From Escherichia coli O157:H7 (GTDB lineage: Bacteria; Pseudomonadota; Gammaproteobacteria; Enterobacterales; Enterobacteriaceae): DNA of 64,000 nucleotides. Positions 26,701 through 29,700 of this stretch are shown in pieces; the first letter of the stretch is position 1, and each line of letters begins with the position of its first letter. A program made the position numbers. The stretch lies in the NCBI RefSeq assembly GCF_013167455.1, contig NZ_CP038332.1; one strand, written 5' to 3'.

Positions 26701-29700
26701 TTTTGATAAGCAAGCACAAAACACGACAATTAATATGTTTATAACGTTTAACACATCAAACAATTGCATTATGATACATTCTTTTGTGTGATAATGAATC
26801 AACAACAAATATTTAATATACAAAACAAAACTCAATAAAAAATAAAAACCAAAAAAAAAAAAAAAAAATAAAGGTATTCTTAGCCACTATATCCAGATTG
26901 AATCGCCACGGGTTTAACAGACACCTCAGAGTCATTTTAAATGGCTTAAAGAGAGGTGCCCATGAGCGGTAAGCGTTATCCCGAAGATTTTAAAATTGAA
27001 GCGGTAAAACAAGTTGTTGACCGCGGTCATTCTGCTTCCAGCGTTGCAACACTTCGCCATGCTGAGGCCTGATAACAGTAAGCGTACAGCCTGAACCGTC
27101 TGGTCAGAATCTGACGAATTAGACAAAGTGGTGTCCACCAAATAAGTAGTGGGAACCAAAGTATCAGATATGCAGAAAAATGTGACTCCCGGCAGGCGAA
27201 AAGGCTGCCCTAATTATCCTCCCGAATTTAAACAGCAGCTCGTTGCTGCCTCCTGTGAACCCGGGATATCCATCTCAAAACTTGCTCTTGAAAATGGCAT
27301 TAACGCCAATCTGTTGTTCAAATGGCGACAACAATGGCGCGAGGGAAAGCTGCTATTACCTTCTTCAGAGAGCCCCCAGCTACTTCCTGTGACTCTCGAT
27401 GCAGCTGCCGAACAGCCAGAATCGCTCGCAGAGGACCCGGAAACCCTCAGTATCAGCTGTGAGGTAACGTTCCGGCACGGGACGCTCCGCTTCAATGGCA
27501 ATGTCAGCGAAAAGCTCCTGACTCTGCTGATACAGGAACTGAAGCGATGATCCCGTTACCTTCCGGGACCAAAATTTGGCTGGTTGCCGGTATCACCGAT
27601 ATGAGAAATGGCTTCAACGGCCTGGCTGCGAAAGTACAAACGGCGCTGAAAGACGATCCCATGTCCGGCCATGTTTTCATTTTCCGGGGCCGCAGCGGCA
27701 GTCAGGTTAAACTGCTGTGGTCCACCGGTGACGGACTGTGCCTCCTGACCAAACGGCTGGAGCGTGGGCGCTTCGCCTGGCCGTCAGCCCGTGATGGCAA
27801 AGTGTTCCTTACGCAGGCGCAGCTGGCGATGCTGCTGGAAGGTATCGACTGGCGACAGCCTAAGCGGCTGCTGACCTCCCTGACCATGCTGTAAATCTCT
27901 TTATCCTGGTTGTCACAGAATAAGCCCGGTAAAATACGGGCTTATGAACGACATCTCTTCTGACGACATCTTCCTGCTGAAACAGCGCCTGGCCGAACAG
28001 GAAGCGCTGATCCACGCCCTGCAGGAAAAGCTGAGCAACCGGGAGCGCGAAATAGACCATCTGCAGGCGCAGCTGGATAAACTCCGCCGGATGAACTTCG
28101 GCAGTCGTTCCGAAAAAGTCTCCCGCCGTATCGCACAAATGGAAGCCGATCTGAACCGGCTTCAGAAAGAGAGCGATACGCTGACTGGTAGGGTGTATGA
28201 CCCGGCAGTACAGCGTCCGTTGCGTCAGACCCGCACCCGTAAGCCGTTCCCTGAATCACTACCCCGTGACGAAAAGCGACTGTTGCCTGCGGCGCCGTGC
28301 TGCCCGAACTGCGGCGGTTCACTGAGCTATCTGGGCGAGGATACCGCCGAACAGCTGGAGTTGATGCGTAGCGCCTTCCGGGTTATCCGGACGGTACGGG
28401 AAAAACATGCCTGTACTCAGTGCGATGCCATCGTGCAGGCACCTGCACCTTCGCGGCCCATCGAGCGGGGTATCGCCGGACCGGGGCTGCTGGCCCGCGT
28501 GCTGACCTCGAAGTATGCAGAGCACACCCCGCTGTATCGCCAGTCAGAAATATACGGCCGGCAAGGTGTGGAGCTGAGGCGTTCACTGCTGTCGGGCTGG
28601 GTGGATGCATGCTGCCGGCTGCTGTCTCCGCTGGAAGAGGCGCTTCATGGCTATGTCATGACTGACGGCAAACTCCATGCCGATGATACCCCGGTCCAGG
28701 TACTGCTGCCGGGTAATAAGAAGACGAAGACCGGGCGGTTGTGGGCGTATGTTCGTGATGACCGCAATGCAGGGTCAGCGTTGGCACCTGCAGTGTGGTT
28801 CGCTTACAGCCCGGACAGAAAAGGCATCCATCCGCAGACTCATCTTGCCTGCTTCAGCGGTGTGCTGCAAGCGGATGCGTACGCCGGGTTCAACGAGCTG
28901 TATCGCAATGGTGGGATAACGGAAGCTGCCTGCTGGGCTCATGCCCGCCGAAAGATCCACGATGTGCACGTCCGCATCCCGTCAGCACTGACGGAAGAAG
29001 CCCTGGAGCAGATCGGTCAGTTGTACGCCATAGAGGCGGATATAAGGGGAATGCCGGCAGAGCAGCGGCTTGCTGAACGTCAGCGAAAAACGAAACCGTT
29101 GTTGAAATCCCTGGAAAGCTGGTTGCGTGAAAAGATGAAGACCCTGTCGCGACACTCAGAGTTGGCGAAGGCGTTCGCGTACGCACTTAACCAGTGGCCG
29201 GCACTGACGTACTATGCGAACGATGGCTGGGTGGAAATCGACAACAACATCGCTGAAAATGCCCTGCGGGCGGTCAGTCTGGGTCGTAAAAACTTCCTGT
29301 TCTTCGGCTCTGATCATGGTGGTGAGCGGGGAGCGCTACTGTACAGCCTGATCGGGACGTGCAAACTGAATGACGTGGATCCAGAAAGCTACCTTCGCCA
29401 TGTGCTTGGCGTCATAGCAGACTGGCCGGTCAACCGGGTCAGCGAACTGCTTCCGTGGCGCATAGCACTGCCAGCTGAATAACACATCCCCGTCAATACG
29501 GCCCTCGCTGTACGCTTACTGATAACATATTCCTGGGTAAGCTTCCATGGCGCATAACACTCGCTTACGTTGAACTGACCGCTCAGTAAATATCAATACA
29601 GTTCTGACGAGCCGCTTACAAGCTGTGATTCATACAGACTGAGCACACGAGCTGCGACAGCAACACCGATGCGTTCAGCAAGCTTCAGGGCTTCACTGCG

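Follow-up and report, generated by a model that had tools for sequence, protein, structure and literature searches.

Does the length of an adenine run upstream of a virulence operon matter to that operon, or is the run simply a place where plasmid DNA changes easily? The question is raised by the virulence plasmid pO157 of Escherichia coli O157, in which 18 adenines lie in a row upstream of stcE. E. coli has few long, hypervariable homopolymers and is generally thought to lack repeat-based contingency mechanisms. A preliminary description of the window (the whole stretch of 64,000 nucleotides analysed here, from contig NZ_CP038332.1) held that the tract would be prone to slipped-strand length variation, and that such variation could change promoter geometry or DNA curvature. 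The element itself is of an ordinary kind, a hypermutable mononucleotide repeat. No description of this tract, or of its use in typing, was found in the literature searched, which is an incomplete collection.

The tract and its plasmid context

The tract consists of exactly 18 A residues at 26851-26868 of the window, as the preliminary description had reported, preceded by CC (26849-26850) and followed by TAAAGG. On the sense strand of stcE, which is encoded on the minus strand, it reads T18. It is the sole homopolymer of more than 9 bases in the 64 kb window, the next-longest being of 9, and the number of A/T runs of at least 18 bases expected under independent-base and first-order Markov models is ~7e-6 for the whole window and ~3e-6 to 2e-5 for the local AT-rich composition. 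With an expectation of about 1e-5, the run is not a product of chance base composition. To its left lies an A-rich, low-complexity flank (26820-26850, ACAAAACAAAACTCAAT-A6-T-A5-CC), and Tandem Repeats Finder calls the segment 26822-26872 as low-complexity A-rich repeats. This flank holds secondary variable sites, namely A6/A7 at 26837-26842, T/C at 26843 and CC/CCC at 26849-26850, with A7T in Z903, A7C in EC4115 and RM19259, and CCC in 493/89. The right flank (26869-26899, TAAAGGTATTCTTAGCCACTATATCCAGAT) is unique sequence and the last stretch with homology to the stcE upstream regions of pO55-type plasmids; the A45 alleles described below carry its TAAA twice.

The window belongs to pO157. 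CP051820.1 matches the 901 bases around the tract at 100% identity, and hundreds of pO157 records have them in near-identical form. The first gene of the stcE-etp cluster, stcE (tagA), encodes an M66 glycomucinase in an ORF of 898 aa (23817-26513, minus strand), which NZ_CP111097.1 annotates as WP_001358886.1 at identical coordinates. Its ATG lies at 26513, so that the tract begins 338 bp upstream, close to the 340 bp first estimated. Between the start of stcE and an IS remnant there is an AT-rich island (26450-26900) where 100-bp windows have 19-32% GC, compared with 42-50% for the adjoining stcE coding sequence, which agrees with the AT-rich surroundings ascribed to the tract at the outset. 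Composition and literature make this island a presumed H-NS/Ler-responsive region, and the tract is located at its distal end.

About 31 bp to the right of the tract starts the left-end remnant of an IS911-like element of the IS3 family (26898-27077, plus strand), with a truncated orfA from 26963, which bounds the stcE upstream module. The remnant matches loci of IS3-family transposases at 91-93%, among them the K-12 copy beside yagB, and is annotated elsewhere as a partial transposase pseudogene. In this lineage it is interrupted by the insertion of a complete ISEc8 of 2,442 bp (IS66 family; 27078-29519, plus strand), recognised by its terminal inverted repeat, an 8-bp target duplication (TGATAACA), IS66 ORFs and a TnpB annotation. 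This insertion is lineage-specific and separate from the tract, and in Sakai/EDL933-type plasmids the homology to the window stops at 27077. Extra BLAST match length at the locus, of up to +211 bp, was considered as a sign of giant tracts, an idea that was rejected when its source proved to be differing ISEc8 insertion points.

Length alleles among pO157 plasmids

Among 5,426 complete E. coli genomes, 287 carry the locus, which is plasmid-borne in every case. Tract lengths were obtained by two routes: base-by-base reading of 17 records, and a census, queried with 200-base flanks around the tract, in which the flanks were subtracted from the matched span. The census gave 37 net lengths among 215 plasmid records with essentially identical flanks, ranging from 3 to ~49 (one record reaches 58 when its imperfect tail is counted), and these net lengths may err by one, since the neighbouring short runs at 26837-26842 and 26849-26850 vary too. 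A gap at the tract accounts for the lowered identity to the query. The preliminary description had proposed a comparison across isolates and would have given way to an invariant length, which is clearly not what the plasmids hold.

Read directly, the tract extends from A3 in RM19259 to A45 in 6535WT and PA20, both of which carry extra TAAA-type units after the run. Between these extremes we read A7 (strain 4276), A10 (Z903), A16 (strain 140), A17 (Sakai), A19 (FLT_2011B), A20 (EDL933, and also pSFO157 of 493/89, where CCC replaces CC), A21 (TW14588), A26 (strain 119), A28 (FRIK1989), A33 (N8B7-2), A35 (strain 135) and A37 (EC4115), with flanks that are alike save for minor changes in the neighbouring runs. 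The pooled histogram of net lengths is skewed by the choice of queries, whose best-hit lists centred on A9, A18, A25 and A40, as well as by shared ancestry. In an unbiased systematic sample of 60 records, about one quarter cluster at 7-11 and lengths between 13 and 38 are broadly represented, and a net length of 12 did not occur among the 215 sampled records. The median length is 15 in cattle isolates and 19 in human ones, a difference confounded by lineage and sampling.

The most telling comparisons come from three series of near-identical plasmids of ~93 kb. Once the tract is subtracted, record length is 93,151 in 11 of the 12 plasmids of a first pTA series (A23 to A35), 94,471 in all six of a second one (A16 to A24), and 92,714 in six out of six PulseNet isolates (A22 once, A23 three times, A26 twice). 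This constancy means that the tract is their only length-variable site, and together with a range from A3 to A45 between invariant flanks it strongly supports the predicted proneness to slippage. Judged from lengths alone, these PNUSAE groups are compatible with stability at the level of the cluster.

Homopolymers are also sites of technical error, documented in the literature for long-read O157 assemblies, and the observed variation could be mainly an artefact of sequencing and assembly, with PacBio, Nanopore, 454 and Illumina miscalls scattered around a nearly constant true length. The odd, imperfect tails of the longest alleles, such as that of PA20, where A45 is followed by TTAAATAAATAAA, would fit such an origin, as would the difference of one base between 6535WT and its NalR derivative. 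However, the range from A3 to A45 is far above the usual errors of 1-2 bases, and replicates from one strain or clone give identical lengths. The net length is 20 in four of four independent assemblies of EDL933 (one of them read directly as A20), 19 in both 86-24 derivatives, 9 in the four OkiPb isolates from Okinawan cattle, 7 in five out of five cattle-hide isolates and 28 in strains 130, 131 and 133; EC4115, SS17 and SS52 have a common net length of 38, and the triplet and the pair of PNUSAE isolates agree likewise. Besides, the Sanger-era record of Sakai (A17) already differs from EDL933 (A20), PCR-free Illumina reads served to polish the CP038xxx assemblies, and the short alleles are clade-specific. 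Such a range, combined with exact agreement between replicates, cannot be accounted for by long-read miscalling, and a mainly artefactual origin is very unlikely. Variation in tract length is biological and not sequencing noise, with long-read miscalling probably blurring the exact values of the longest alleles.

Origin and dynamics of the repeat

Alleles of 7-11 bases are common to whole clades, found in several countries and in plasmids of differing sizes, and alleles of at least 16 bases vary among near-identical plasmids of otherwise equal length. The rate of microsatellite slippage climbs steeply with length, and the instability of this tract is length-dependent, just as expected of a microsatellite. 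The run is uninterrupted and well beyond the size that makes slippage frequent (A18 here, pure runs of A16-45 elsewhere), and it is polymorphic among close relatives with conserved flanks, which are the marks of a mononucleotide microsatellite.

On the evidence of sequence comparison, the tract is a derived expansion specific to pO157, since four pO55-type stcE plasmids have CAAAAG (A4) at the homologous site and RM19259 has only A3. The pO55-type upstream region is homologous (~78% identity) up to ...ATATCCAGAT, and the IS911 remnant of pO157 begins exactly there. The poly(A) tail of a retro-element was entertained as an origin and dropped, the pO55 homologue being a short A run inside continuous homology. 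Some pO55-type plasmids carry a repeat of their own, a perfect (AATAAGT)n array situated ~25 bp nearer to stcE than the tract site, which numbers 13.3 copies in CB9615 and ~10 in 2013C-3264 and is absent from two other plasmids of this type. Each of two plasmid lineages has thus seen a different, unrelated repeat grow in this one A-rich stretch. Read most simply, the double expansion reflects a slippage-prone, low-complexity sequence, and it could also hint at selection for a variable spacer.

We favour, as the probable explanation, a hypermutable mononucleotide microsatellite that evolves by slippage, near-neutrally and with no strong regulatory role. Replication slippage would expand an ancestral run of 3-4 A inside the A-rich low-complexity stretch and, past about a dozen bases, the tract would gain and lose bases much faster than any other site of the plasmid. 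The outcome would be a near-continuous series of alleles, with the tract as a rigid spacer that differs in length from plasmid to plasmid and lies ~285-302 bp upstream of the point where stcE transcription begins.

Position relative to the stcE promoter

StcE, for which a role in adherence has been reported, is encoded by a gene that Ler activates 4-fold (etpC, 2-3 fold) and that belongs to a set derepressed 4-26 fold in an hns mutant (PMC3891560, PMC3539938). Primer extension with the oligonucleotide stcEPE (GGCAAGGATCGTACATGA) yielded a product of “around 125 nt” (PMC3539938). This primer maps to 26442-26459 and places the transcription start near 26566, an approximate position that refers to LB stationary phase only and is the sole experimental anchor for the promoter. 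A candidate core promoter lies just upstream (26585-26614, minus strand), with the putative hexamers TTTACG (-35, 26614-26609) and TATAAA (-10, 26590-26585) separated by an 18-nt spacer; a sigma-70 consensus scan of 26400-27100 returned 3 sites against 2.8 expected and is uninformative in such AT-rich DNA. A second, more distal Ler-dependent promoter of stcE may also exist. Measured from the start near 26566, the tract occupies positions of about -285 to -302 and cannot, at that distance, alter the -10/-35 spacing or the alignment of an UP element. A core-promoter or UP-element effect was rejected on these grounds, and the idea that tract length changes promoter geometry finds no support.

The suggested change in DNA curvature fares no better. 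An uninterrupted poly(dA) run is straight and stiff, and intrinsic curvature requires short A-tracts phased with the helical repeat. No phased A-tracts (4-6 bp with a repeat of ~10-11 bp) were present in the tract region, which contains a single continuous run and unphased short neighbours, the A runs starting at 26822, 26827, 26837, 26844 and 26851 with spacings of 5, 10, 7 and 7 bp.

Structured RNA signals were equally absent. The search against Rfam 15 gave no family match, the only hit being a chance-level one to a Plasmodium snoRNA at 26738-26815 (22.8 bits against a gathering threshold of 63, E = 0.82). On the minus strand, there is no terminator-like site and no GC-rich hairpin 5′ of the T run, and the 91 nt from 26935 to 26845 fold weakly (MFE -9.6 kcal/mol, z = +1.6, weaker than 192 of 200 shuffled sequences); an intrinsic terminator was consequently rejected.

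Could the tract act on stcE?

Nucleoprotein complexes of H-NS and Ler can span hundreds of base pairs, and the tract sits where the action of both proteins would be expected. A repeat at this place might work as a contingency or rheostat element, whose length would tune the expression of stcE-etp either through the distance and helical phase that separate distal from proximal H-NS/Ler-bound DNA, or as a stiff segment, poorly bound by H-NS, at the border of the silenced DNA; subpopulations would then arise by slippage, differing in their level of mucinase and type II secretion. Several observations point in this direction: the tract is hypervariable, it lies inside the AT-rich island upstream of a Ler/H-NS-regulated host-interaction gene (StcE is a secreted M66 glycomucinase), and the pO55-type plasmids have independently acquired a 7-mer VNTR at nearly the same place. 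There is also a precedent in the T-tract of sabA in Helicobacter pylori, an intergenic T/A homopolymer upstream of a host-interaction gene that varies by slippage between isolates and tunes expression through its length (PMC4081817). However, the sabA tract abuts the -35 element, as its mechanism needs (PMC4081817), whereas that of pO157 is ~285-302 bp away from the mapped start, and in general it lies in none of the positions typical of contingency loci, be it a coding sequence, a -10/-35 spacer or the immediate vicinity of a -35 element. Levels of stcE transcript are ~1.5-2.3 fold higher in clade 8 than in clade 2 strains (PMC2858043), a difference that could be ascribed to the tract but that comes with a general rise of the LEE/Ler regulon and is thereby confounded (PMC2858043). 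Clade 8 tracts themselves span from A21 (TW14588) to A37 (EC4115), and whole clades hold A7-A10 without reverting. Nor is there any apparent periodicity of ~10.5 bp, the helical phase, among the allele lengths of the unbiased 60-record sample, and no match with up to 2 mismatches to the H-NS high-affinity motif (TCGATAAATT) occurs in 26400-27000. On balance, a repeat that tunes stcE-etp in this manner is unlikely, and an action at a distance through H-NS/Ler architecture is doubtful to a similar or slightly greater degree. Specifically, the poly(A) tract might be a selected variable spacer that sets the geometry of H-NS/Ler bridging over the stcE-etp control region, and the (AATAAGT)n array of pO55-type plasmids might be another by analogy, which we hold to be slightly less likely than the rheostat.

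A different role could be played at the level of RNA. The T run is on the sense strand of stcE, directly downstream of the remnants of IS elements and of a region prone to ISEc8 insertion, and a U18-U45 stretch in hypothetical read-through RNA would weaken the RNA:DNA hybrid, cause termination or slippage, and shield stcE from the IS911 remnant and ISEc8 as a transcriptional insulator. A promoter-like site on the minus strand (26962-26934) would read through the T run. Against such a role, no GC-rich hairpin stands ahead of the T run, and the surrounding 91-nt RNA forms a weaker fold than its shuffled controls; besides, the A7-A10 clades and RM19259, with A3, retain the same gene arrangement. 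An insulator is thus the least probable of the explanations considered, and a highly improbable one. With the near-neutral microsatellite as the preferred reading, the tract most probably has little or no effect on the expression of stcE-etp.

Comparison with known repeat systems

The pO157 tract shares most of its features with neutral, hypermutable mononucleotide microsatellites: an uninterrupted run, invariant flanks, alleles spaced by single bases, an instability that rises with length and an origin from a short run. It departs from them in being unusually long and variable for E. coli, and in its location on a low-copy virulence plasmid beside a regulated virulence operon. Among the phase-variable genes of Neisseria, porA and opc have poly-G/C tracts in their spacers and nadA has a TAAA repeat upstream of its promoter. 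The nadA repeat stands outside the core promoter and acts by altering the geometry of regulator binding, which makes it the nearest analogy for a distal mechanism in a group where repeat number also changes upstream of virulence genes. Yet the Neisseria repeats lie no more than ~100 bp from the promoter and have proven effects on expression, whereas the pO157 tract is farther away.

A last comparison concerns the VNTR loci of pO157 already in use for MLVA typing of O157, with units of 6-7 bp that are reliably sized. Like these loci, the poly(A) tract is a fast-evolving repeat of pO157 that separates close isolates; unlike them, it is a homopolymer and far harder to measure.

Implications for typing and for the biology of O157

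No other length site on pO157 changes as fast as the tract among the plasmid sets analysed here. Plasmids of otherwise equal length can be told apart by it, and PulseNet isolates form groups of the same length. As a strain marker, it could sharpen the typing of O157 outbreaks. Left unmasked, the same tract would lead to spurious differences or assembly errors in typing.

For the biology of E. coli O157, the interest of the tract lies in its place within the region that controls a virulence operon under Ler and H-NS regulation, where it bears on the existence of a repeat-tuned virulence gene in this organism. If it were a selected spacer, O157 populations would contain subclones made by slippage, with a graded output of mucinase and type II secretion, and E. 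coli would have a repeat-based contingency mechanism after all. If, instead, it has no effect on expression, the tract would serve as a clean natural case of microsatellite instability that depends on length, in a plasmid of low copy number.

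Sequence variation in and around the A-tract

Minor secondary polymorphisms directly flank the tract, the A18 homopolymer located 338 bp upstream of the stcE start codon, at window positions 26837-26850 and 26869-26872. They include a run of either six or seven adenines (A6/A7, 26837-42), a T/C difference at 26843 and a CC/CCC difference at 26849-50, and in 6535WT and PA20, both with an A45 allele, the run is followed by duplicated TAAA units. Instability extends over the entire 50-bp A-rich block, beyond the long run alone.

Some pO55-type plasmids also show a perfect tandem array, (AATAAGT)n, approximately 384-476 bp upstream of stcE. 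This array reaches 13.3 copies in the pO55 plasmid of O55:H7 CB9615 (comparison locus L010, local positions 1682-1774) and about 10 copies in the pO55-type 2013C-3264 (L014, about 1384-1450), and is absent from two other pO55-type loci, L015 and L016. About 25 bp separate the array from the position homologous to the A-tract of pO157. The array is a second variable repeat, independent of the A-tract, within the same A-rich stretch.

The shortest allele found, A3, comes from the river isolate RM19259 (NZ_CP046526.1; L011, about 1673-1675), where it is paired with the A7C flank variant seen elsewhere in EC4115 (A37). This allele could be either the unexpanded ancestral state or a long tract that has almost fully collapsed. 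A pO157-type stcE upstream locus was also observed in ML775, an E. coli strain labelled O103 from a pork product (NZ_CP193496.1, 26651-27059), with identical flanks and a net A9 (matched span minus flanks), as in the short-allele clade of O157. The plasmid may have been transferred, or the strain's serotype may be mislabelled.

Insertions and promoter-like motifs

The IS66-family element ISEc8 has repeatedly inserted within roughly 250 bp on the right-hand side of the tract, making this stretch an insertion hot spot. Within the region considered (window 27070-29527), ISEc8 occupies 27078-29519 with the target duplication TGATAACA. Other pO157 lineages carry it shifted to the right by 43 bp or 209 bp relative to this copy, or in reversed orientation, either inside the IS911 remnant (UK Z strains) or further right (RM19259) (comparison loci L001, 1181-1390; L003, 1179-1222; L009, 599-861; L011, 1970-2904).

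Promoter-like hexamer pairs occur on both strands, TTAACA-16-TATGAT on the plus strand (window 26748-26775) and TGGGCA-17-TAAAAT on the minus strand (26962-26934), and their predicted transcripts would cross the tract. These pairs are probably meaningless, because their count is not above that expected from shuffled AT-rich sequence. They would nevertheless bear on the rival view of the tract as an insulator, in which the T run on the stcE sense strand would stop read-through from upstream IS elements.
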